From assembly GCF_017348835.2 (NCBI RefSeq), contig NZ_CP071375.1: 64,000 nucleotides of DNA. The stretch is one strand, 5' to 3'. This stretch comes from Escherichia coli. GTDB taxonomy: Bacteria > Pseudomonadota > Gammaproteobacteria > Enterobacterales > Enterobacteriaceae. The translations under genes were made by a program, and so were the position numbers. Of this stretch, positions 4,979 to 61,615 are shown one piece after another. The notes beneath the pieces are model-generated. The model saw only the letters and a list, made by a program, of their open reading frames with translations. It ran no database searches and had not been told where the DNA came from. Numbering within the stretch: the first letter of the stretch is position 1; the number at the start of each line of letters is the position of its first letter.

Positions 4979-6082
4979 TTATAACTTATCAATGCTGCGC
5001 ATGTACATTAAGGCCCTTTCTTTAGCCGTTGGAAGCTTGCTAAAAATTAAGTCGGCCTTTTCTTGCTTTATCACTTTATCGTGTACGCCTTCAACTCCAG
5101 AAATGATTTTGTCACAAATATCATTGGCATCATAAGGATCAAAATATATTGCGCTGTCGTCACACACTGTATGAGCAAATGGTAGATCAGACGTGAAGAT
5201 CATTTTTTTGAAATACATGGCTTCTACATAACTGGCACTGAAACACTCCAGTAACGTTGGCAAAAATAGTGCATCACAATAATGATATAATGCTGGACAT
5301 TGATTAATGGAAACTGGCCCAACATTAATTACACGATGGCTATACCGTTCGGGAATATCCGCCATCGAAGAACTTAACGTAACAATGAACTTGTAATTAT
5401 CTGGCAATAACTCAATTAGCTTGGGTATCACGGTTAGGTTTTTGTGAGGATAATCATGTGAAATTGTCAGAAGGTAAATGTCCCCCACATTCCTCTCCGG
5501 TAAATCGTCTAAGATACTATTATCGTATAAATCCTCATTCTGCAAAATCGCATTGATTGTATTAGGAACAGTGACGACATGACTGTCCTTAAAATGATAT
5601 TGTTCCACAAGTTTATTTTTAGCATCATCAGTTTCAACAAATATAAGATCTGCATTTTTTTTATAAAAATAAGGTTGTAGGCGCAGTAAAAGTATCTTTT
5701 TTACCTTTTCACAAAAACTTAACTTCGGAAATACTTGGCTCACATCATAAATCAGCCATGGCAACGCGAATCCAACGGCATGCTTAACATTCTTCGGGCT
5801 CCAGTAACTTGGGCCAAATATCGTAAAGACTTTCGTAATTTTATTTTCAGCAACGAGCTGATCTAAATCTCGTCTTGATTCAACATTGAACACATTTGAT
5901 GGTGTTTTTCTGATAATTTTGCATCTTGATAGTGTTTCTCCTGAGAGTTGTTTCGCAACTACAGGTGAAACTGCTGCAATGAAATGTTGCCCACCTTTAG
6001 TTAACTCTTCTAATACAGATACAGCAACCTGAACACCACCACCCACATACAGATTAGATGCATTAATCAGCAAACTCATCAA
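4979..6082 (-). CDS. Glycosyltransferase, GT1/GT4-like (specificity unknown, possibly a hexose transferase)
   Basis: 367-aa ORF between wzy and fnlA in the O-antigen operon; AT-rich; assigned by position and general resemblance to GT-B glycosyltransferases. Confidence 0.6.
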   Translation of the reverse strand: MMSLLINASNLYVGGGVQVAVSVLEELTKGGQHFIAAVSPVVAKQLSGETLSRCKIIRKTPSNVFNVESRRDLDQLVAENKITKVFTIFGPSYWSPKNVKHAVGFALPWLIYDVSQVFPKLSFCEKVKKILLLRLQPYFYKKNADLIFVETDDAKNKLVEQYHFKDSHVVTVPNTINAILQNEDLYDNSILDDLPERNVGDIYLLTISHDYPHKNLTVIPKLIELLPDNYKFIVTLSSSMADIPERYSHRVINVGPVSINQCPALYHYCDALFLPTLLECFSASYVEAMYFKKMIFTSDLPFAHTVCDDSAIYFDPYDANDICDKIISGVEGVHDKVIKQEKADLIFSKLPTAKERALMYMRSIDKL

Positions 6083-6129
6083 TATCTTCCCTTATTTTAA
6101 CTGCTATAGACATCTTCGTCGAAAAAGGA

Positions 6130-7443
6130 TTATTTTTTAGGTGTATTTTCTATCCTTCGAGGCTCGACTTTTCTAATGAGCAGCAAAAGGAACAACACAA
6201 TTAAGTATGGAATGATTAAGACAAATTCCCCAAAGAAATAGTTTCCAAACAGCATAAACACGATCGCTTTCATAAAACACGCCTGTAACAGACAATATTT
6301 AATATTGCTGGATGTTTTATTGTAGATAATTTGAAGCAATAAGCCAATAATAAATGAATAGAGTATTACACCAGCTAATCCTAGATCATTATAGAAATAG
6401 TATATAAATGTTTTTGCATTGAAAAAACCAACCTCATAGTCAGTGAACCCCATGGAGTTACTATCGTAATAGGTACCAAAGAACGGCTTAAGAATAAACT
6501 TAAGACCACCCCATATATATGTGGGTTCGAATGATGAGTTAATTAATAAATTCAGATTCTGAAAATTCATTGCAACATAGGTGTAAATCTGGCTAAAAAG
6601 CGAATTTGCCATCCCATCACCAAATTGAGTAGAGGCGCGACTTGTTTCTGAAATCCGCATTGCACCGATATACAAAAGCAATGCCATCGGTAGCATAACC
6701 ATCATTAGTTGTTTGAACCCTAGCGTAATTTTACGTGGAATCAGAAAAATATAGATGGCACCTAACATGAATACTAAAAATTCTCCCCTTGATACCTCAT
6801 AAACCAATGCAACTACAATACTGAAAAAAACATAGGATAGAAGGAAATACTTTCTCACACGCCCTTGTCGATATGAGTACTTAAGTTCAAATAGAGCAGC
6901 AAGTGCTATGTAAGGCATTGATACATCTATGAAATTCAACAACGGAGGCGCATTTGGAACTAATGATTTTAAATCACTTCCTGCACCAGACAGAAGTGGT
7001 GGATTAGTGAGCATCACTCCAAAGCGCATAAAGAAAGCAACGACTGATAAAGCTACAATAAAATTAAAAAATACGCGATAAAATAAGTTAAAGTCAAAAC
7101 GCTGAAAACTAAAATTATTTTTATCTATCTTTTTTGAAAATACAAATGGGGCAACAAAGAAAACACCAGCAAGTAAAATAGCACTTAGTGTTTCCAGACT
7201 TAATTCTGATTGCAATTGATGGTCATACAGAATATCAACCGTAGACAGGGAAGCTGAGAAGTACCAAAAAACAATACCAATTCCAAGAGGATGAATAATA
7301 TCTTTTGTTTTTAAAACAATTAAAGAATATAAGACCAAAGCTATTATAAAGAATGCAATTGAGATCATAATGGGCTCTACCGCGAATTTACTTATTATTA
7401 TACGCGAGATGCTTTGCGCGCGAAATGAAATAACAATAACCAA
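6130..7443 (-). CDS. wzy: O-antigen polymerase Wzy (polytopic membrane protein)
   Basis: Very hydrophobic 437-aa ORF with many predicted TM segments, adjacent to wzx. The ORF-track start overlaps wzx by 56 nt; the true start may be the internal Met near 7368. Confidence 0.6.
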   Translation of the reverse strand: MVIVISFRAQSISRIIISKFAVEPIMISIAFFIIALVLYSLIVLKTKDIIHPLGIGIVFWYFSASLSTVDILYDHQLQSELSLETLSAILLAGVFFVAPFVFSKKIDKNNFSFQRFDFNLFYRVFFNFIVALSVVAFFMRFGVMLTNPPLLSGAGSDLKSLVPNAPPLLNFIDVSMPYIALAALFELKYSYRQGRVRKYFLLSYVFFSIVVALVYEVSRGEFLVFMLGAIYIFLIPRKITLGFKQLMMVMLPMALLLYIGAMRISETSRASTQFGDGMANSLFSQIYTYVAMNFQNLNLLINSSFEPTYIWGGLKFILKPFFGTYYDSNSMGFTDYEVGFFNAKTFIYYFYNDLGLAGVILYSFIIGLLLQIIYNKTSSNIKYCLLQACFMKAIVFMLFGNYFFGEFVLIIPYLIVLFLLLLIRKVEPRRIENTPKK

Positions 7444-19016: not shown

Positions 19017-19143
19017 TATATTCAGGTCAAAACGGCTTCAGTCAAAAAAAATTTCGTGGCTGCAATCGTTTCATATATATTGACATTCTTAAAAAACCGG
19101 GGGAAACCTTCGGTTTTAATTAGCATCAAGCCAGAAAATTGAT

Positions 19144-19182
19144 ACGCTACCGCCCCTGGCTTAACAGCTACCAGTGCACTGC
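19144..19182 (-). promoter_or_regulatory. JUMPstart element with ops motif (RfaH-dependent antitermination site) upstream of the O-antigen operon
   Basis: Plus strand reads acgctaccgcccctggcttaacagctaccagtgcactg; the reverse complement contains GGCGGTAGCGT (ops) within the 39-bp JUMPstart consensus, in the galF-to-first-O-antigen-gene spacer. Confidence 0.75.
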
Positions 19183-24468: not shown

Positions 24469-24850
24469 TTGCCTGATGCGACGCTGGCGCGTCTTATCAG
24501 GCCTACAGGTCCCGAGCACAGAACCGTAGGACGGATAAGGCGTTCACGCCGCATCCGGCATTCAGTGCCTGATGCGACGCTGACGCGTCTTATCAGGCCT
24601 ACAGGTCCCGAGCACAGAACCGTAAGACGGATAAGGCATTCACGCCGCATCCGGCATTCAGTGCCTGATGCGACGCTGACGCGTCTTATCAGGCCTACAA
24701 GATCCAAGCACAGAACCGTAGGATGGATAAGGCGTTCACGCCGCATCCGGCATTCAGTGCCTGATGCGACGCTGGCGCGTCTTATCAGGCCTACAAGACC
24801 CGAGCACAGAACCGTAGGCCGGAATAAGGCGTTTTACGCTGCACCCGGCA
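24469..24850. repeat. REP/BIME array (about four tandem units of paired, inverted REP sequences)
   Basis: Repeated gcctgatgcgacgct(g/a)(g/a)cgcgtcttatcaggcctaca alternating with the inverted gtaggacggataaggcgttcacgccgcatccggca, with a period of roughly 100 bp, in the wzxC-wcaK spacer. Confidence 0.85.
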
Positions 24851-43530: not shown

Positions 43531-43709
43531 TGTTTATTTATCACTTTGGCAGAGTTATTATCCTGTGCACTATTAATAGCAATGTCGCCATGCACATTTA
43601 CCTTGCAGTTAATTGAATAAAAATTTAACTGGCATCAGTCCTAAAAAAATTGATTTCATCCGCAGGCTATTGACAGAATAATTCAGACTGGTCTTTCAGG
43701 CATCCAGAC

Positions 43710-43748
43710 ACGCTACCGCCCCTGGCTTTTTAGCTACCAATACACTGA
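43710..43748 (-). promoter_or_regulatory. JUMPstart/ops element upstream of wza (colanic acid operon)
   Basis: Plus strand acgctaccgcccctggctttttagctaccaatacactg; the reverse complement carries GGCGGTAGCGT. It is a near-duplicate of the element at 19144-19182. Confidence 0.75.
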
Positions 43749-44188: not shown

Positions 44189-45772
44189 ATGGAATGGATT
44201 GCCGATCCGTCTATCTGGGCCGGGTTAATCACGCTGATTGTGATCGAACTGGTCCTCGGCATTGATAACCTGGTCTTTATTGCCATCCTCGCCGAAAAAC
44301 TACCGCCGAAGCAGCGCGACCGCGCACGGGTTACCGGGCTGCTGCTGGCGATGTTAATGCGCCTGTTACTGCTGGCGTCAATCTCCTGGCTGGTCACCCT
44401 GACTCAACCGCTGTTCAGCTTCCGCTCGTTTACCTTTAGCGCCCGCGACTTAATCATGCTGATTGGTGGTTTCTTCCTGTTGTTCAAAGCCACGATGGAG
44501 CTGAACGAACGGCTGGAAGGGAAAGACAGCAATAATCCCACACAACGCAAAGGTGCGAAGTTCTGGGGCGTGGTGACACAAATTGTGGTACTGGACGCCA
44601 TCTTCTCACTCGACTCAGTGATTACCGCCGTCGGGATGGTCGACCATTTACTGGTCATGATGGCCGCCGTGGTTATCGCTATCAGCCTGATGTTGATGGC
44701 CAGCAAGCCGTTAACGCAATTTGTTAACAGTCACCCGACGATCGTTATTCTCTGCTTAAGCTTCCTGTTGATGATTGGCTTTAGTCTGGTGGCAGAAGGT
44801 TTCGGTTTCGTCATTCCGAAAGGCTACCTGTACGCTGCCATTGGTTTCTCGGTGATGATCGAGGCGCTCAATCAGTTGGCTATCTTTAACCGGCGACGTT
44901 TTCTTTCCGCTAACCAGACGCTGCGCCAGCGGACTACCGAAGCGGTAATGCGCCTGCTTAGCGGGCAAAAAGAGGATGCGGAACTGGACGCCGAAACCGC
45001 GTCCATGCTGGTGGATCATGGTAACCAGCAGATCTTTAATCCGCAGGAACGGCGGATGATTGAGCGGGTACTTAATCTTAACCAGCGTACCGTCAGCAGC
45101 ATTATGACGTCGCGCCACGATATTGAGCATATCGATCTCAACGCGCCGGAAGACGAGATCCGCCAGTTGCTGGAGCGAAATCAGCATACGCGGCTGGTGG
45201 TTACCGACGGTGATGACGCAGAAGATTTGCTCGGTGTTGTTCACGTTATCGACCTGCTACAACAGTCACTGCGCGGCGAACCGCTCAACCTGCGGGTGTT
45301 GATTCGCCAGCCGCTGGTGTTCCCGGAAACCTTGCCATTGTTACCTGCCCTGGAGCAGTTCCGTAATGCCCGCACACACTTTGCTTTTGTGGTGGATGAG
45401 TTTGGTTCAGTGGAAGGGATTGTGACATTAAGTGACGTCACTGAAACCATTGCCGGTAACTTACCGAACGAAGTGGAAGAGATCGACGCCCGCCATGATA
45501 TTCAGAAGAATGCGGACGGATCCTGGACGGCGAATGGTCATATGCCGCTGGAAGATCTGGTGCAATATGTGCCGCTGCCGCTGGATGAAAAACGTGAATA
45601 TCACACCATTGCCGGGCTGTTGATGGAGTATTTGCAGCGTATTCCAAAACCTGGCGAAGAAGTTCAGGTGGGGGATTATTTGCTTAAAACGTTGCAGGTA
45701 GAAAGCCATCGCGTGCAGAAGGTGCAAATTATTCCGCTTCGTAAGGATGGCGAGATGGAGTACGAGGTGTGA
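44189..45772 (+). CDS. yegH: Inner-membrane protein YegH (TerC-family membrane domain + CBS pair + CorC/HlyC C-terminal domain)
   Basis: Protein [34 protein letters not shown]...; the ORF track begins 13 codons upstream (44150). Confidence 0.9.
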
Positions 45773-45778
45773 TAAAAC

Positions 45779-45817
45779 ATCAAATGCGCAGGTTCAAACT
45801 GCGCATTTGATTTATAC
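45779..45817 (+). terminator. Rho-independent terminator-like hairpin downstream of yegH
   Basis: Perfect inverted repeat atcaaatgcgcag / ctgcgcatttgat with loop gttcaaa, followed by ttat. Confidence 0.55.
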
Positions 45818-45846
45818 AAAATTTAGTATAATCTAAGGATGGAGTA

Positions 45847-46185
45847 ATGAGAAAAAAGCTGGCTTTTCTTGATACCAGTCTTGACGATTTACGCGCATTT
45901 CCAGAATCGTCTCGACAGGAAATTGGCTATCAACTCGACAGGATCCAACAAGGGTTAAACCCATACGACTGGAAACCTTTTTCAACTATCGGCCCTGGTG
46001 TGCGAGAGATTCGTACTCGCGATGCTGATGGGATCTATCGCGTCATGTATGTCGCAAAATTTGAAGAAGCGGTTTACGTATTGCATTGTTTTCAAAAGAA
46101 AACACAGACTACCAGTCAATCGGATATTGATTTAGCCAAACGACGCTATAAAGAACTTGTTCAGGAGCGGAAAAATGAAAATTGA
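45847..46185 (+). CDS. Type II toxin, RelE/ParE-superfamily (HigB-like, Gp49-type)
   Basis: 112-aa ORF with the RelE-fold hallmark ...YRVMYVAKFEEAVYVLHCFQKKTQTT...; followed by, and overlapping by 11 nt, an XRE-HTH ORF (toxin-first order as in higBA). Confidence 0.7.
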   Translation: MRKKLAFLDTSLDDLRAFPESSRQEIGYQLDRIQQGLNPYDWKPFSTIGPGVREIRTRDADGIYRVMYVAKFEEAVYVLHCFQKKTQTTSQSDIDLAKRRYKELVQERKNEN

Positions 46186-46465
46186 AACCTTTGATAGTGT
46201 GTGGGATGCGGTGAGTGACACCCCTGAACAAGCGGAAAATATGCGGATCCGTGCCGAGCTTGTAACGATCATTAATAACTGGATTGAACAACAAGGGATT
46301 AGCCAGGCTCAGGCAGCTTCTGCTTTAGGGGTCACTCAACCTCGCATCTCTGAACTTGCCAGAGGTAAAATCCAGATCTTTAGTATCGATAAATTGATCA
46401 CCATGATGGCTCATGCAGGACTACATATTCAACGTATTGAAGTTCAATATCCACATGCTGCTTAG
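46175..46465 (+). CDS. XRE-family HTH antitoxin (HigA-like)
   Basis: HTH segment QAQAASALGVTQPRISELARGK; likely start MKIETF at 46175 (the ORF track starts 6 codons upstream), overlapping the toxin stop. Confidence 0.65.
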   Translation: MKIETFDSVWDAVSDTPEQAENMRIRAELVTIINNWIEQQGISQAQAASALGVTQPRISELARGKIQIFSIDKLITMMAHAGLHIQRIEVQYPHAA

Positions 46466-46478
46466 TGCTATAAATACA

Positions 46479-46504
46479 GATGGCGACAAATTGATGCCGC
46501 CATC
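46479..46504. terminator. Possible bidirectional terminator hairpin between the antitoxin gene and asmA (convergent)
   Basis: Inverted repeat gatggcg ... cgccatc followed by tatata; weak. Confidence 0.3.
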
Positions 46505-46517
46505 TATATAACTTGTC

Positions 46518-48371
46518 TTACATCTTCTCCAGCAACTTCTTCACATCTTTGCCATTGCGGGAATCTTTATTCCGCTCGGCCCAGTCATTCAGGCGACGTT
46601 TCGCTTCGTCCTGTAGATGTTTGCGCAGTAACTGATCCACTTGCAGACTGTAATTGAGTTGCTGCCAGTTGCCATAAACCCGCAGCGGTACTGGCGTTTC
46701 TTTGAGGAAATCAATCAGTTTGCTTTCCCCGTTCCAGCCACCCACGACCCGAATATCAAACTGGGTGTCGCAGGTTTGATCTGCCAGATTCAACATACCT
46801 TCCCCTGTCAACGCCAGCACAGGCGATTGACCTTGCATGTCGTTTAACGTCACGACGCCATCCTTCAACGTCAAATCGGTGGTAAAGCGGTCAAGACGCG
46901 TCACGTTATCGAAGTTTTCAGCGGCCTTCACATCACCACCATTACGTTCTACCGCTTGCTGAATCATCTGCTGGAAGTTCATCCCTTCCATGCGCGTATC
47001 GGCCATTTCGACATGCGCCGTCCCCTGCCAGTTGTGGCGGAATGCGTCGGCATCTATGTCAGCACCGGAGAAATCACCAGCCAGTGACATCTTTCCGGTC
47101 AACGAAATCGGATAGTTAAACGCCTTCAGAATGGTGCCAATCTCAACGTTTTCCAGCCGTGGCTGGAAGTTTATCCGCGGATTTATTGATGTCGCGTCCA
47201 GCGTGCCCGGCAGTGAAACCTGTCCACCGTTAAGTTTGCCCTGCAGTTGAGTAATTTCCAGCAAACCCGACTTGTTGGTCATTTGCGTGGCAACATCTGT
47301 AAAATTCATTCCGCGCCAGCGCACGTTACTGGCCTGCAACAAAATATCAGCCGTAAAGCCTTGCAGTCCCTGATAGGCCGGTTCATCAATACGCGAAGAA
47401 ATGACCGGGCGCGGCAACGTTGATTGGCTCTGCCCCTGCTGCGCGGCACCGTTTTCACCATTCGCGGTTTCATTAAGCGGGATGAGGTTGTCAAGATTCA
47501 GTTGCGGGAATTGCAGCCTCAGCTGCCATTCCGGTTTCTCTGTCAGCGTGACCTGTGCTTGCCCGCTCAGCGTACTATCATTGGCGGTCAAACTAATTTG
47601 GTTAAATGAAAGGCGTTTATGTGACTCCTGCCACTGGGCCTGGAAACTCCCCTGCCCCTGAATACCTTGTTTTGGTAAATCTGCACCCTGCAACTGCCAG
47701 TTAATTTGTTCAATAGCCGCCGTTAAATCATGCGGATAATCAGAAGCATCTACCGTACCGTTAAGGGATATCGTGAGATCGCGCTGATCGCGATTAACCC
47801 GCCCGGAGAACTCAAATGAGCCACGATGTTGGGGATCTTGTTCCATTTGCAGGCGGATATTGCGGATTGTCACCTGCTCGTCATCTTCATGCTGGAACAC
47901 CAGAACGCTGTCCGCCACCTTAAGACTGGATATATCAAACGACCATCCGCGATCGTCTGACAGATCCGGCAAGGTATTGTCGCGCGGTGCAACCGGAGCG
48001 TCTTCACTGCGCACCGCTTCCGTCTGCGGCGTCAGTTGGATCACTGCCCCTTTTAGCATCACCTGCTTAACGCTCAGTTGATGACTCAGTAGTGGTAAAA
48101 GCGCCACGTCCAGGCGCATGTTGTCGGCGCGAACCAGTGGCTGGCTCGCGCCCTGGGCGGTGAGAGACATTCGCCCGGAGAGGATACTAAGCTGCGGCCA
48201 GACGTGCCAACGCAGTGGCCCGTCGAGCTGCAATTGATAACCGCTACGTGCAGCAACTTGCTTGACCATATAGTCGCGGAAATCATTCGGATTCACCAGC
48301 AACACTAACGCAGATAACCCGGCCACCAGCACGACCAGGAGTATCATCAGCGTCGTCAGAAATCGTCTCAT
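46518..48371 (-). CDS. asmA: AsmA (outer-membrane assembly / AsmA-like family protein)
   Basis: 617-aa ORF with N-terminal membrane anchor (MRRFLTTLMILLVVLVAGLSALVLL) recognised as AsmA. Confidence 0.9.
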   Translation of the reverse strand: MRRFLTTLMILLVVLVAGLSALVLLVNPNDFRDYMVKQVAARSGYQLQLDGPLRWHVWPQLSILSGRMSLTAQGASQPLVRADNMRLDVALLPLLSHQLSVKQVMLKGAVIQLTPQTEAVRSEDAPVAPRDNTLPDLSDDRGWSFDISSLKVADSVLVFQHEDDEQVTIRNIRLQMEQDPQHRGSFEFSGRVNRDQRDLTISLNGTVDASDYPHDLTAAIEQINWQLQGADLPKQGIQGQGSFQAQWQESHKRLSFNQISLTANDSTLSGQAQVTLTEKPEWQLRLQFPQLNLDNLIPLNETANGENGAAQQGQSQSTLPRPVISSRIDEPAYQGLQGFTADILLQASNVRWRGMNFTDVATQMTNKSGLLEITQLQGKLNGGQVSLPGTLDATSINPRINFQPRLENVEIGTILKAFNYPISLTGKMSLAGDFSGADIDADAFRHNWQGTAHVEMADTRMEGMNFQQMIQQAVERNGGDVKAAENFDNVTRLDRFTTDLTLKDGVVTLNDMQGQSPVLALTGEGMLNLADQTCDTQFDIRVVGGWNGESKLIDFLKETPVPLRVYGNWQQLNYSLQVDQLLRKHLQDEAKRRLNDWAERNKDSRNGKDVKKLLEKM

Positions 48372-50024: not shown

Positions 50025-53000
50025 ATGAGCAAACAATCACAGCATGTATTAATTGCCCTGCCCCACCCGCTGCTTCACCTGGTCAGTTTAGGTTTAGTCT
50101 CGTTTATCTTCACCCTTTTCTCGCTTGAGCTTTCGCAGTTTGGCACCCAACTCGCCCCACTGTGGTTCCCGACGTCCATCATGATGGTGGCGTTTTATCG
50201 CCATGCCGGGCGCATGTGGCCGGGAATTGCGCTGAGCTGTTCGCTGGGAAATATCGCCGCATCCATCCTGCTTTTTTCCACCAGCTCGCTGAACATCACC
50301 TGGACGACCATCAATATTGTTGAAGCCGTGGTCGGGGCAGTGCTGCTACGTAAATTGCTGCCGTGGTATAACCCCTTGCAAAATCTGGCTGACTGGCTGC
50401 GTCTGGCACTCGGCAGCGCCATTGTTCCGCCTCTGTTGGGGGGTGTTCTTGTTGTCCTGCTGACGCCCGGAGACGATCCTCTCAGGGCATTTTTGATATG
50501 GGTACTGTCAGAATCCATCGGCGCTCTGGCACTGGTGCCGCTGGGATTGTTATTTAAACCACACTATCTGCTGCGCCATCGCAACCCACGGTTGCTTTTT
50601 GAGTCGCTGCTCACGTTAGCCATCACACTGACGTTAAGCTGGCTTTCGATGCTGTATCTGCCGTGGCCTTTTACTTTCATTATTGTGCTGTTGATGTGGA
50701 GCGCCGTGCGCCTGCCACGAATGGAAGCTTTTTTGATCTTCCTTACCACGGTGATGATGGTGTCACTGATGATGGCCGCGGATCCCTCCCTGCTTGCTAC
50801 GCCGCGTACGTACCTGATGAGCCATATGCCGTGGCTACCGTTTTTGCTGATCCTGCTGCCCGCCAACATCATGACCATGGTGATGTATGCCTTTCGTGCG
50901 GAACGCAAACACATTTCCGAAAGCGAAACCCGCTTTCGGAACGCGATGGAATATTCCGCTATCGGTATGGCGTTAGTGGGCACCGAGGGACAATGGCTGC
51001 AATCCAACAAAGCGCTCTGCCAGTTTCTCGGTTACAGTCAGGAAGAGCTGCGCGGACTCACCTTTCAGCAACTGACCTGGCCGGAGGATCTCAATAAAGA
51101 TCTCCAACAGGTTGAAAAGCTGATAAGCGGTGAAATAAACACCTATTCAATGGAAAAACGCTACTACAACCGTAATGGCGATGTTGTCTGGGCGTTGCTT
51201 GCCGTCTCACTGGTGCGCCACACGGATGGCACGCCGCTCTATTTTATCGCTCAGATTGAAGACATTAACGAGCTAAAACGCACCGAACAGGTGAATCAGC
51301 AACTGATGGAACGCATCACGCTGGCTAACGAAGCGGGCGGGATTGGCATCTGGGAGTGGGAGTTGAAGCCGAATATTTTTAGCTGGGATAAGCGGATGTT
51401 CGAGCTGTATGAAATTCCTCCACATATCAAACCGAACTGGCAGGTGTGGTACGAGTGCGTGCTGCCGGAAGATCGCCAGCATGCCGAAAAAGTGATTCGT
51501 GATTCGTTGCAATCACGCTCGCCCTTTAAACTGGAATTTCGCATTACCGTAAAAGACGGTATTCGCCATATCCGCGCCCTCGCCAACCGGGTACTGAATA
51601 AAGAAGGCGAAGTCGAACGCCTGCTCGGCATTAATATGGATATGACCGAGGTTAAACAGCTTAACGAGGCATTGTTTCAGGAAAAAGAGCGCCTGCACAT
51701 TACGCTTGATTCCATCGGTGAAGCCGTGGTCTGTATTGATATGGCGATGAAAATTACCTTTATGAATCCGGTGGCGGAGAAGATGAGCGGCTGGGCGCAG
51801 GAAGAAGTATTAGGTGTTCCGCTCCTGACGGTGTTGCATATTACTTTTGGCGACAACGGACCATTAATGGAGAACATTTACAGTGCCGACACCTCACGTT
51901 CCGCGATCGAACAAGATGTGGTGTTGCACTGTCGGAGCGGCGGCAGTTACGACGTGCATTACAGTATTACGCCGTTAAGTACTCTGGACGGCAGCAATAT
52001 TGGTTCGGTTCTGGTGATTCAGGACGTTACCGAATCACGCAAAATGCTGCGCCAGCTGAGCTACAGCGCCTCCCATGATGCACTGACGCATCTCGCCAAC
52101 CGCGCCAGTTTTGAGAAACAACTGCGTATCCTGCTGCAAACGGTAAACAGTACGCATCAGCGACATGCACTGGTGTTTATCGATCTTGATCGCTTTAAAG
52201 CGGTGAATGACAGCGCCGGGCATGCGGCGGGCGACGCTTTGCTGCGCGAACTGGCGTCGTTGATGCTGAGTATGCTGCGCTCCAGTGACGTGCTGGCGCG
52301 GCTCGGCGGTGATGAATTTGGTCTGCTGCTGCCAGACTGCAATGTTGAAAGCGCTCGTTTTATCGCTACACGTATTATCAGTGCTGTGAATGACTATCAC
52401 TTTATATGGGAAGGCCGGGTACATCGGGTAGGTGCCAGCGCCGGGATTACCTTGATCGATGACAACAATCATCAGGCGGCAGAAGTGATGTCGCAGGCTG
52501 ATATCGCCTGTTATGCCTCCAAAAATGGTGGACGGGGCCGGGTGACGGTTTACGAACCACAGCAAGCTGCCGCACATAGCGAACGGGCGGCGATGTCGCT
52601 TGATGAACAGTGGCGGATGATTAAAGAGAATCAGTTGATGATGATCGCCCACGGTGTCGCTTCGCCGCGGATCCCGGAAGCGCGTAATTTGTGGCTGATT
52701 TCACTTAAGCTCTGGAGTTGCGAAGGCGAGATTATTGATGAACAAACATTTCGTCGTAGCTTCAGCGATCCGGCGCTTAGCCATGCTCTTGACCGCCGGG
52801 TATTCCACGAATTTTTCCAGCAGGCCGCAAAAGCGGTTGCCAGTAAAGGCATAAGCATCGCCCTCCCCCTTTCCGTTGCCGGTTTGAGTAGCGCCATGCT
52901 GGTGAATGACCTGGTTGAGCAGCTGGAAAATAGCCCTCTACCACCACGGTTATTACATCTGATTATTCCGGCTGAAGCGATTTTAGATCACGCAGAAAGC

Positions 53001-53342
53001 GTGCAAAAACTGCGGCTGGCGGGATGTCGGATAGTGCTCAGCCAGGTGGGCCGCGATCTGCAAATCTTCAACTCGCTGAAAGCGAATATGGCAGATTACC
53101 TGCTACTTGATGGTGAGTTATGCGCCAACGTGCAGGGTAATTTGATGGATGAGATGCTGATTACGATTATTCAGGGGCACGCTCAGCGACTCGGGATGAA
53201 AACCATCGCCGGGCCAGTCGTTTTACCCTTAGTGATGGATACGCTTTCTGGCATCGACGTCGATCTGATTTATGGTGATGTGATTGCCGATGCCCAACCG
53301 CTGGATTTGCTGGTGAATAGTAGTTATTTCGCGATTAACTGA
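50025..53342 (+). CDS. dgcE: Diguanylate cyclase DgcE (YegE): MASE1 membrane domain, PAS domains, GGDEF, degenerate EAL
   Basis: 1105-aa ORF with hydrophobic N-terminal third, PAS repeats, RxGGDEF motif (ARLGGDEFGLL) and C-terminal EAL-like region. Confidence 0.9.
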   Translation: MSKQSQHVLIALPHPLLHLVSLGLVSFIFTLFSLELSQFGTQLAPLWFPTSIMMVAFYRHAGRMWPGIALSCSLGNIAASILLFSTSSLNITWTTINIVEAVVGAVLLRKLLPWYNPLQNLADWLRLALGSAIVPPLLGGVLVVLLTPGDDPLRAFLIWVLSESIGALALVPLGLLFKPHYLLRHRNPRLLFESLLTLAITLTLSWLSMLYLPWPFTFIIVLLMWSAVRLPRMEAFLIFLTTVMMVSLMMAADPSLLATPRTYLMSHMPWLPFLLILLPANIMTMVMYAFRAERKHISESETRFRNAMEYSAIGMALVGTEGQWLQSNKALCQFLGYSQEELRGLTFQQLTWPEDLNKDLQQVEKLISGEINTYSMEKRYYNRNGDVVWALLAVSLVRHTDGTPLYFIAQIEDINELKRTEQVNQQLMERITLANEAGGIGIWEWELKPNIFSWDKRMFELYEIPPHIKPNWQVWYECVLPEDRQHAEKVIRDSLQSRSPFKLEFRITVKDGIRHIRALANRVLNKEGEVERLLGINMDMTEVKQLNEALFQEKERLHITLDSIGEAVVCIDMAMKITFMNPVAEKMSGWAQEEVLGVPLLTVLHITFGDNGPLMENIYSADTSRSAIEQDVVLHCRSGGSYDVHYSITPLSTLDGSNIGSVLVIQDVTESRKMLRQLSYSASHDALTHLANRASFEKQLRILLQTVNSTHQRHALVFIDLDRFKAVNDSAGHAAGDALLRELASLMLSMLRSSDVLARLGGDEFGLLLPDCNVESARFIATRIISAVNDYHFIWEGRVHRVGASAGITLIDDNNHQAAEVMSQADIACYASKNGGRGRVTVYEPQQAAAHSERAAMSLDEQWRMIKENQLMMIAHGVASPRIPEARNLWLISLKLWSCEGEIIDEQTFRRSFSDPALSHALDRRVFHEFFQQAAKAVASKGISIALPLSVAGLSSAMLVNDLVEQLENSPLPPRLLHLIIPAEAILDHAESVQKLRLAGCRIVLSQVGRDLQIFNSLKANMADYLLLDGELCANVQGNLMDEMLITIIQGHAQRLGMKTIAGPVVLPLVMDTLSGIDVDLIYGDVIADAQPLDLLVNSSYFAIN

Positions 53343-59152: not shown

Positions 59153-59333
59153 AAGAAATCCTTTCTTAGAGAATTATTGAGGTCCGGTATCATACCGACT
59201 GCAATAATGAAATAAGAGCAGGCAAAGCAACTTTCAGAATTCGGCCCGGCGGCGCAGAAAATTTTGCTATTCGCCTCGCAAGAACGGAGAGCCGTCGATT
59301 GACACTAAGGGCGGAGTGACATAATTTCAGGAG

Positions 59334-59480
59334 TGAGGGTTAGGGAGAGGTTTCCCCCTCCCCCTGGTGTTCTTAGTAAGCCTGGAAGCTAATCACTAAG
59401 AGTATCAGCAGTATGATGACGTGCTTCATCATAACCCTTTCCTTATTAAAAGCCCTCTTCTCCGGGAGAGGGTTTCCCGT
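59334..59480 (+). ncRNA. sib: Sib-type antisense sRNA (type I antitoxin), copy 1
   Basis: Sigma70-like promoter (TTGACA 59299-59304, 17-bp spacer, TAATTT 59322-59327); transcript fully antisense to the ibs ORF; GC hairpin gccctcttctccgggagaggg followed by a T-run at about 59453-59483. Ends are approximate. Confidence 0.6.
59374..59433 (-). CDS. ibs: Ibs-family type I toxin (19-aa hydrophobic peptide MMKHVIILLILLVISFQAY), copy 1
   Basis: Hand translation of the reverse complement of 59374-59433 gives a 19-codon ORF plus stop that matches the Ibs toxin family and lies inside the antisense Sib unit. Confidence 0.75.
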
Positions 59481-59668
59481 TTCAGCGTCCCGCTGAAATC
59501 GTCGGCTTACCTCCTTTCGCCCTGAATGCAGTCTATCGCTAACGCGTGAACAAAATAGTTCCCTCTGTGATTATTGCGTAACGACTCGCAAAGAATATTT
59601 GCTGGCAGGATCGCAGACTGCAAAGCCTGCAGATTGACAATCTTATCGTGAAGGCATACTTTCAGGAG

Positions 59669-59808
59669 TGAGGGTAGAGTGGGGTTTCCCCCGCCCTGGT
59701 AGTCTTAGTAAGCCGGGAAGCTTATGACTAAGAGCACCACGATGATGATCCACTTCATCATGACCCTTTCCTTATTTAAGGCCCCTTCCTCGGGAGGGGC
59801 TTTCCCGT
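59669..59808 (+). ncRNA. sib: Sib-type antisense sRNA, copy 2
   Basis: Promoter TTGACA 59634-59639, 17-bp spacer, TACTTT 59657-59662; terminator-like hairpin gccccttcctcgggaggggc followed by tttcccgttt near 59781-59810. Ends are approximate. Confidence 0.6.
59705..59761 (-). CDS. ibs: Ibs-family type I toxin (18 aa, MMKWIIIVVLLVISFPAY), copy 2
   Basis: Hand translation of the reverse complement; 18 codons plus stop; Ibs-like. Confidence 0.75.
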   Translation of the reverse strand: MMKWIIIVVLLVISFPAY

Positions 59809-59996
59809 TTCAGCGTCCCGCTGAAATCGTCGGCTTACCTCCTTTCGCCCTGAATTCAGTCTATCGCTAACGCGTGAACAAAATAGTTTCCTCTGTGATT
59901 ATTGCGTAACGTCTCGCAAAGAATATTTGCTGGCAGGATCGCAGACTGCAAAGCCTGCGGATTGACATTCTGAACGTGAAGGCATACTTTCAGGAG

Positions 59997-60135
59997 TGAG
60001 GGTAGAGCGGGGTTTCCCCCGCCCTGGTAGTCTTAGTATGCTGGGTAGCTAATCACTAAGAGCACCACGATGATGAGTATCTTCATCATGACCCTTTCCT
60101 TATTTATGGCCCCTTCCTCGGGAGGGGCTTTCCCG
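59997..60135 (+). ncRNA. sib: Sib-type antisense sRNA, copy 3
   Basis: Promoter TTGACA 59962-59967, 17-bp spacer, TACTTT 59985-59990; terminator-like hairpin ending near 60135. Ends are approximate. Confidence 0.6.
60033..60089 (-). CDS. ibs: Ibs-family type I toxin (18 aa, MMKILIIVVLLVISYPAY), copy 3
   Basis: Hand translation of the reverse complement; 18 codons plus stop; Ibs-like. Confidence 0.75.
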   Translation of the reverse strand: MMKILIIVVLLVISYPAY

Positions 60136-60367
60136 TTTCAGCGTCCCGCTGAAATCGTCGGCTTACCTCCTTTCGCCATGCAAGCAGTCTATCGCTAACG
60201 CGTAGATAAAATAGTTTCCTGTGTTATTACTGGATGCGTGCTCGCAAATGTGCCCGCCATTCAGACGATTCCCGATAGTGTTTCATAATTCCTCCATTTT
60301 TCTCCCTTATTGGCTGGCTACACTAGTATCATTCCGCGAAACGTTTCAGGAAGAGAAACTCTTAACG

Positions 60368-61615
60368 ATGAAAGGCAGTTATAAATCCCGTTGGGTAATC
60401 GTAATCGTGGTGGTTATCGCCGCCATCGCCGCATTCTGGTTCTGGCAAGGCCGCAATGACTCCCAGAGTGCAGCCCCAGGGGCGACGAAACAAGCGCAGC
60501 AATCGCCAGCGGGTGGTCGCCGTGGTATGCGTTCCGGCCCATTAGCCCCGGTTCAGGCGGCGACCGCCGTAGAACAGGCAGTTCCGCGTTACCTCACCGG
60601 GCTTGGCACTATTACCGCTGCTAATACTGTTACGGTGCGTAGCCGCGTGGACGGTCAACTGATGGCGTTACATTTCCAGGAAGGCCAGCAGGTCAAAGCA
60701 GGCGATTTACTGGCAGAAATTGACCCCAGCCAGTTCAAAGTTGCATTAGCACAAGCCCAGGGCCAACTGGCAAAAGATAAAGCCACGCTTGCCAACGCCC
60801 GCCGTGACCTGGCGCGTTATCAACAACTGGTAAAAACCAATCTCGTATCTCGTCAGGAACTGGATGCCCAACAGGCGCTGGTCAGTGAAACCGAAGGCAC
60901 CATTAAGGCTGATGAAGCAAGCGTCGCCAGCGCACAGCTGCAACTCGACTGGAGCCGCATCACCGCACCAGTCGATGGTCGCGTTGGTCTCAAGCAGGTT
61001 GATGTTGGTAACCAAATCTCCAGTGGTGATACCACCGGAATTGTGGTGATCACCCAGACGCATCCTATCGATTTGCTCTTTACCCTGCCGGAAAGCGATA
61101 TCGCTACCGTCGTGCAGGCGCAAAAAGCCGGGAAACCGCTTGTGGTAGAAGCCTGGGATCGCACCAACTCGAAGAAATTAAGTGAAGGCACGCTGTTAAG
61201 TCTCGATAACCAAATCGATGCCACTACCGGTACGATTAAAGTGAAAGCACGCTTTAATAATCAGGATGATGCGCTGTTTCCCAATCAGTTTGTTAACGCG
61301 CGCATGTTAGTCGACACCGAACAAAACGCCGTAGTGATCCCAACAGCCGCCCTGCAAATGGGCAATGAAGGCCATTTTGTCTGGGTGCTGAATAGCGAAA
61401 ACAAGGTCAGCAAACATCTGGTGACGCCAGGCATTCAGGACAGTCAGAAAGTGGTGATCCGTGCAGGTATTTCTGCGGGCGATCGCGTGGTGACAGACGG
61501 CATTGATCGCCTGACCGAAGGGGCGAAAGTGGAAGTGGTGGAAGCCCAGAGCGCCACCACTCCGGAAGAGAAAGCCACCAGCCGCGAATACGCGAAAAAA
61601 GGAGCACGCTCCTGA
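60368..61615 (+). CDS. mdtA: Multidrug efflux RND membrane fusion protein MdtA
   Basis: Protein [28 protein letters not shown]... (415 aa); the ORF track extends 49 codons upstream into the sib/ibs repeat. Confidence 0.9.

Follow-up and report, generated by a model that had tools for sequence, protein, structure and literature searches.

Between yegH, which lies on the + strand and ends at position 45772, and the convergent asmA gene (46518-48371, - strand), the 64-kb stretch of Escherichia coli DNA analysed here (the window) carries two small genes on the + strand (Table 1). The first is read from an ATG to a TGA codon and the second from an ATG to a TAG codon, and the two ORFs share 11 nt (46175-46185). 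The initial annotation had given the coordinates, lengths and overlap correctly, and the toxin-first order with overlapping ORFs and the two neighbours, yegH and asmA, are likewise found as it described them. A mechanical ORF list runs the second gene back to a TTG at 46157; the RefSeq start is the ATG, which has been adopted here. ORFs on the minus strand across the pair (46109-46294, for example) were without support and were dismissed.

Table 1. Features of the yegH-asmA spacer, in window coordinates
Feature	Position	Strand	Remarks
Hairpin, 13-bp stem	45779-45811	+	directly 3' of the yegH stop; left edge of the TA-type spacer
Near-perfect palindrome, 20 bp	45812-45831	.	arms TTATACAAAA and TTTAGTATAA; overlaps the -10 box and abuts the 45779-45811 hairpin
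TATAAT, candidate -10 hexamer	45827-45832	+	read from the sequence; in the right arm of the palindrome
Toxin gene	45847-46185	+	112 aa; Gp49 (PF05973), RelE/ParE superfamily; Shine-Dalgarno GGAG at 45841-45844
Antitoxin Shine-Dalgarno AGGAG	46163-46167	+	within the toxin gene
Antitoxin gene	46175-46465	+	96 aa; conserved N-terminal segment (residues 1-27), then HTH_37/XRE domain
Hairpin	46474-46509	.	inverted repeat between the convergent antitoxin and asmA genes

The pair is an ordinary two-gene toxin-antitoxin (TA) module of a known, HigBA-like type, and it has been annotated before. For O157:H7 SS52, RefSeq already lists the two genes under the names 'type II toxin-antitoxin system RelE/ParE family toxin' and 'helix-turn-helix domain-containing protein', and in the Sakai strain they are named ECs_2869 ('toxin RelE') and ECs_2870; the pair of the window is 99.9% identical to that of O157:H7. 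Searches of the literature by locus, protein and flanking gene found no paper, experimental or naming it, on this yegH-asmA locus, and the pair is apparently an annotated yet uncharacterised member of a well-studied kind of TA system.

Several elements of the spacer bear on how the pair might be expressed. The hairpin next to yegH (RNA fold -20.6 kcal/mol, z -7.3) was flagged by a terminator scan and is the probable yegH terminator; on comparison, neither the K-12 spacer nor the plasmid-borne modules described below have a counterpart. The 18-nt core of the adjoining palindrome has a single copy in the window, where 0.01 would be expected, and is kept exactly and in the same place upstream of the related Salmonella modules, where the DNA on either side of it differs. 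On these sequence grounds the palindrome is probably the antitoxin's operator, and we treat it as the candidate for that site. A scan of species-representative genomes with the core gave 40 matches, every one in an unrelated AT-rich genome and none in Enterobacterales, the pattern being too AT-rich and the representatives lacking the module. Since scanning for consensus promoters gave no sigma-70 site on the + strand at the pair, the promoter proposed here is a putative one; its best -35 candidate, TTGATT, is poor and stands only 14 nt upstream of the -10 hexamer. At the far end of the module, the second hairpin, with a fold energy of -14.3 kcal/mol as + strand RNA and of -23.7 kcal/mol (z -6.9) as - strand RNA, is a probable two-way terminator, stronger on the asmA strand. 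Rfam places no RNA family in the yegH-asmA spacer, in either the window or K-12.

Elsewhere in the window, three tandem Sib RNA genes (59299-60104; Rfam RF00113, 138-143 bits each) lie between a yegL-like ORF and a + strand ORF at 60221-61615. Sib RNAs are the antitoxin RNAs of the type I Ibs/Sib toxin-antitoxin pairs, and K-12 has two copies at this site, sibA and sibB. The dgcE (yegE) gene (50025-53342) is an intact ORF of 1,105 aa in the window, whereas both O157:H7 SS52 and Sakai have it as a pseudogene with a frameshift; the window therefore does not come from O157:H7, close as its TA pair is. A tandem array of three naRNA4 (REP-derived) elements is found at 24529-24791, amid a series of large - strand ORFs located at about 19.4-43.5 kb, and two JUMPstart elements at 19143-19181 and 43709-43747, one of them upstream of wza.

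The identity of the two proteins is clear from their families. The 112-aa protein matches the Pfam Gp49 model (PF05973) over its full length (positions 1-90 of 90, E 1.5e-30) and the 96-aa protein matches HTH_37 (PF13744, E 1.7e-21), values that place the pair far beyond chance; the claims of a Gp49-type, RelE/ParE-fold toxin and of an XRE helix-turn-helix partner are both borne out. The toxin has more than 7,800 homologues in a large protein collection, PF05973 being present in all 120 of the 120 matches listed, and 3,934 representatives of a protein library clustered at 50% match it with E <= 0.001. It also matches the phage family phrog_2523 (E 5.7e-37).

A confident AlphaFold2 model of the toxin, built with 75 homologues (mean pLDDT 93.6, pTM 0.84), has a short strand at residues 4-7, followed by two N-terminal helices, then four beta-strands and finally a long C-terminal helix (91-111), and this model and its Foldseek matches identify it as a RelE (BECR) fold. 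The best matches in the PDB are to Mycobacterium tuberculosis HigB1, in the ribosome-bound structure 7nbu_Y and the free one, 7awk (TM scores 0.67-0.69), followed in order by Streptococcus pneumoniae HigB (6af3/6af4), Vibrio cholerae HigB2 and RelE proteins. The catalytic residues of HigB1 are E66, R68, R77, F93, K95, Q98 and K99 (PMC9098466). In a profile alignment the first six of these correspond to E54, R56, R65, F82, K84 and Q87 of the toxin, each of which is the invariant or majority residue among the 75 homologues, Q87 being the least conserved (44 of 75). The equivalent of K99 is T88, in a column where only 39 of the 75 homologues have lysine.

Could the pair then be an inactive relic, in which the Gp49 protein is not poisonous and the HTH protein is a plain small transcription factor? 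The threonine at position 88 would be in keeping with this, as would the precedent of Gp49 members that are not toxic, such as M. tuberculosis HigB2 and HigB3 (PMC9098466). The conservation of the six core catalytic positions argues against it, however, and the closest Salmonella relatives have T, A or S at position 88; because those toxins likewise lack the lysine, T88 is no sign of decay specific to the chromosomal copy. We return below to the population data that bear on the same question.

A second alternative accepts a working toxin and changes its target, from mRNA to DNA gyrase. The RefSeq name and the membership of the RelE/ParE superfamily would both accommodate a ParE-type gyrase poison, and V. 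cholerae ParE2 does appear in the Foldseek list. It ranks only 16th there (E 0.046, TM 0.42), below the HigB and RelE RNases, however; moreover, the Pfam scan of the 112-aa protein gave no ParE match, the RNase catalytic residues are kept, and the Gp49 family is classed under ribosome-dependent mRNA degradation (PMC11980606). We consider a gyrase poison extremely unlikely, and an mRNase remains the preferred reading of the toxin.

The antitoxin also gives weaker matches to HTH_3 and HTH_31. By sequence its nearest solved structures are the uncharacterised HTH_37 proteins 2a6c (E 2e-14) and 2o38, with weaker matches to S. pneumoniae HigA and HipB. In its model (pLDDT 83) an XRE helical bundle follows a less confident N-terminal segment, and the fold is matched by 2a6c, 2o38, HipB antitoxins, S. 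pneumoniae HigA and M. tuberculosis HigA2. The HTH helices of the model include the stretch LGVTQPRISELARGKIQ, which the Salmonella relatives share without change, as they do most of the N-terminal segment MKIxTFDxVxDA..DTPEQAENM. Both proteins fall below the thresholds of the corresponding NCBIfam models, the toxin scoring 27 bits against a cut-off of 62.85 for TIGR02683 (upstrm_HI1419 toxin) and the antitoxin 18.6 bits against 47.7 for TIGR02607 (HigA antidote). Judged by these scores, the two are relatives of the TIGR02683 and TIGR02607 equivalogs and not members of them.

Gp49 proteins have been described repeatedly as toxin-first mRNases with HTH antitoxins (PMC11980606, PMC5906591, PMC7157771). 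HigBA2 of Acinetobacter baumannii has its toxin gene first, and RNase activity, neutralisation and autoregulation have been reported for it (PMC5906591); Gp49/HTH_37 pairs are also carried by Tn3-family transposons (PMC7157771), and a classification published in 2025 assigns PF05973 to ribosome-dependent mRNA degradation with the gene order toxin/antitoxin (PMC11980606). The module described here shares both Pfam families, the gene order and the gene overlap with HigBA2 of A. baumannii pAB120, with Tn4662a and its relatives, and with modules in Salmonella and Erwinia. Unlike these plasmid and Tn3 modules, the E. coli copy is chromosomal and occupies a fixed site, with two housekeeping genes around it and no transposon or plasmid genes nearby.

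Comparison with the systems of known structure shows kinship at a distance. HigB1 of M. tuberculosis (Rv1955, the TAC toxin), the best fold match, is also a Gp49 protein with its gene placed first, a long C-terminal helix and the same catalytic E, R, R, F, K and Q, but it is only about 21-23% identical to the toxin, it has K99 in place of T88, and the third gene of the TAC system, encoding a SecB-like chaperone, is absent here. The S. pneumoniae HigBA pair (6af3/6af4) provides the toxin's best PDB match by sequence (profile E 1.7e-5), and its antitoxin is likewise an XRE HTH protein of about 97 aa; this pair, too, is distant (about 20-23% identity), and its antitoxin match is weak (E 0.09).

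The toxin had also been described as being of the HigB type. This holds for the Gp49 family and fails for the HigB families of K-12, Proteus and Vibrio. K-12 HigBA (ygjN/ygjM), HigBA of Proteus Rts1 and V. cholerae HigBA2 all resemble the present module in having a RelE-fold mRNase encoded upstream of an HTH antitoxin, but the likeness is one of architecture only, because their toxins belong to other Pfam families (PF09907, PF05015 and PF06296, respectively; PMC11980606), none of which matched the 112-aa protein in the Pfam scan. 'HigB' is therefore an architectural label here and not the name of a family.

Taking the families, fold and catalytic residues together with the arrangement of the genes, the pair is very probably a chromosomal type II TA operon of the 'reverse-order HigBA-like' Gp49/HTH_37 kind, with a toxin that would act as an mRNase and an antitoxin that would repress its own synthesis. 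The toxin would most likely be a ribosome-dependent endoribonuclease that, like M. tuberculosis HigB1, cleaves mRNA in the ribosomal A site, and its predicted toxicity would be neutralised by the antitoxin, which most likely binds it through the conserved N-terminal segment. A dimer of the antitoxin, alone or with the toxin, probably represses the operon at the 20-bp palindrome lying over the -10 box, and the overlap of the toxin stop with the antitoxin start would couple the translation of the two genes.

Relatives of the module are found in quite different surroundings, and all those inspected have a Gp49 gene and, downstream of it and overlapping it, an HTH_37 gene (about 96-98 aa). Salmonella enterica contigs with TraW-like and TraX-like genes carry a module whose toxin is 79% identical to that of the window, another Salmonella contig has an IncFII RepA gene beside the module (toxin 82% identical), and a conjugative IncP plasmid of Erwinia persicina carries a further copy (toxin 74% identical). 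The gene pair thus travels jointly across these unrelated contexts. Across the Salmonella copies the toxin is 79-82% and the antitoxin 71-76% identical to the pair in the window. Homologues occur in 637 plasmid records, 303 of them predicted to be conjugative, and in 23 phage records, the best of which are Mycobacterium abscessus prophages (58% identity).

On the Salmonella contigs that hold the closest relative there is a further Gp49 + HTH pair, distinct from the first; it lies on the other strand at a distance of about 1.5 kb and adjoins the TraX-like/TraW-like genes (positions 5913-6504 and 5014-5605 of the extracted loci L005 and L006). As regards plasmids of E. coli itself, three 'plasmid' records contain the pair at 99-100% identity, namely NZ_CP083887.1 (43 kb), NZ_CP114132.1 (439 kb) and CP137936.1 (365 kb). 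A plasmid-borne copy in the first of these was considered and rejected: the same record carries asmA, dcd and udk, and it is therefore a piece of chromosome that was deposited under the label of a plasmid.

The distribution of the module within E. coli was surveyed in 5,426 complete genomes, with a 280-nt antitoxin segment and a 328-nt toxin segment as queries. The antitoxin segment was found in 908 genomes and was full-length in all 908 of them; the toxin segment was matched in 909, at coverage of at least 80% in 790. A full-length pair is present in about 790 of the 5,426 genomes, about 59 of which have a frameshifted toxin, and in roughly 118 others only the 3' half of the toxin gene remains, next to an intact antitoxin, so that the toxin is truncated or frameshifted in some 177 genomes in all. 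The 59 are records with 90-95% toxin identity; the examples inspected carry a 23-bp deletion, which in one is annotated as a frameshift. The lineages with the module include O157:H7/O55:H7 and ST95 strains, and a pig strain, PE164, is the only 100% match to a 741-nt segment among the matches listed.

The spacer of K-12 MG1655, by contrast, is 273 bp long, without an annotated gene, as the initial annotation had it for reference genomes; K-12 is without the pair, and among complete E. coli genomes no more than about 15-17% have it. The K-12 spacer is unrelated to the TA-type spacer and contains a REP-like palindrome. It was matched at 80% coverage or more in at least 3,819 genomes besides K-12. 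The homology of the window to K-12 is lost precisely at the stop codon of yegH and regained precisely at that of asmA. In the K-12-type spacer (L002, 5487-5759) the left part of about 210 bp has neither annotation nor Rfam match, and the REP-like palindrome is at the right end.

Decayed alleles take several forms. In those with the 3' half of the toxin gene, for example in MS1718, K-12-type DNA has taken the place of the promoter together with the toxin gene's first 169 nt, and the antitoxin is intact. An IS1 element lies within the toxin gene of strain G3/10, again beside an intact antitoxin, and in WB61 only the last 52 nt of the antitoxin gene and the right spacer remain while the end of yegH is gone. 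Both genes are frameshifted in 23CRST046, the sole disrupted antitoxin that was seen, and it stands next to a toxin that is already frameshifted. No fewer than five distinct kinds of lesion thus inactivate the toxin at this one site, and none of the alleles inspected has a damaged antitoxin beside a whole toxin.

In every partly decayed allele inspected, then, the decay of the module is toxin-first. Loss of the toxin before the antitoxin is what one predicts if the toxin is active and has to be kept in check by its antidote, and the pattern is indirect evidence that the module functions, although selection that keeps the HTH protein for some other reason could also be its cause. The population pattern is itself of a known kind, in that a survey of 950 E. 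coli genomes found 11 groups of Gp49 toxins with lineage-specific prevalence and abundant orphan antitoxins (PMC10790755).

Two further observations on these strains may be recorded. MS1718 contains about 180 bp of additional inserted DNA, in which there are more GC-rich palindromes (L003, 2612-3002). In strain ECOL-18-VL-LA-PA-Ryan-0026, which has the 23-bp-deletion allele of the toxin, galF is directly upstream of yegH, where wza is expected (1-1410 of the extracted locus L053), and the colanic acid cluster appears to have been lost or moved.

Is the module a newcomer at this site? Comparison of the window with APEC O18, which we take to set an E-like background against phylogroup B2 ST95, gives identities of 97.1% for yegH, 97.9% for asmA and 97.3% for the antitoxin, together with 94.2% for the right spacer, 99.4% for the toxin and 100% for the left spacer. 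Most of the module has thus diverged like its neighbours, which indicates long residence at the site, at least since the split of these lineages. The flanks of the module show no direct repeats and no integrase, transposase or other mobile-element genes.

The initial annotation had seen here a strain-variable accessory insertion. Strain variability is confirmed, but the locus does not look like a recent insertion, given that the whole spacer is swapped, there are no mobile-element scars and the divergence matches that of the flanking genes. An old resident module subject to loss or replacement fits better than a recent gain. The hybrid allele of MS1718 is most simply an intermediate between the TA state and the K-12 state, and the module seems to have resided at this site for long in certain E. 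coli lineages, with REP-containing DNA having taken its place in most others.

Within this locus, the toxin and the left spacer (45773-46185) are far more conserved between lineages than are the antitoxin, yegH and asmA (97-98%). Identity to the window is 99% or more for the toxin segment in 823 of 910 matching records and for the antitoxin segment in 315 of 909. Purifying selection or a recombination sweep could account for this conservation.

The question of an inactive relic can now be taken up again. The repeated loss of the toxin in E. coli, with no obvious harm, would suit a pair without function. Against this, the toxin gene is the best-conserved part of the locus, with 99% identity or more in the 823 of 910 records and 99.4% in APEC O18, whose flanking genes are at 97-98%, and the antitoxin was never lost ahead of the toxin in the alleles inspected. 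Considering these points along with the catalytic residues, we regard a relic as quite improbable, and a working TA operon remains the better account of the pair.

What physiological role might such an operon have? That its main task is not self-maintenance but to defend against phages through abortive infection, or to guard against plasmid addiction, is a minor but real possibility; the alternative concerns the role only, and the same biochemistry is compatible with it. It draws on the Salmonella relatives on conjugative-transfer and IncFII contigs, in which the operator core and LGVTQPRISELARGKIQ are identical, on the roughly 118 genomes in which an intact antitoxin stands beside a truncated toxin, and on the presence of the toxin family in phages as well. 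However, no PADLOC-DB defence model was matched significantly (the best were NsnC, E 0.0014, and PDC-M64C, E 7e-5), and plain toxin-first decay predicts retention of the antitoxin as well.

A narrower form of this idea is that the module, and above all the roughly 118 orphan-antitoxin alleles, serves as an anti-addiction device against plasmid toxins. With an identical operator core, an identical LGVTQPRISELARGKIQ and modules whose toxins are 79-82% identical, the chromosomal antitoxin could neutralise and repress the toxins on the plasmid-like contigs of Salmonella. We find this rather doubtful, somewhat more so than the broader possibility; if it were true, the host would be able to lose such plasmids without being killed.

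For a TA operon of familiar type, the finding matters little past bookkeeping, and its uses are modest. The module marks certain E. coli lineages, O157:H7/O55:H7 and ST95 among them, and the locus is a clean natural case of toxin-first decay in a chromosomal TA module. It may also lend itself to tests of cross-talk between a chromosomal copy and plasmid copies with which it has an operator in common.
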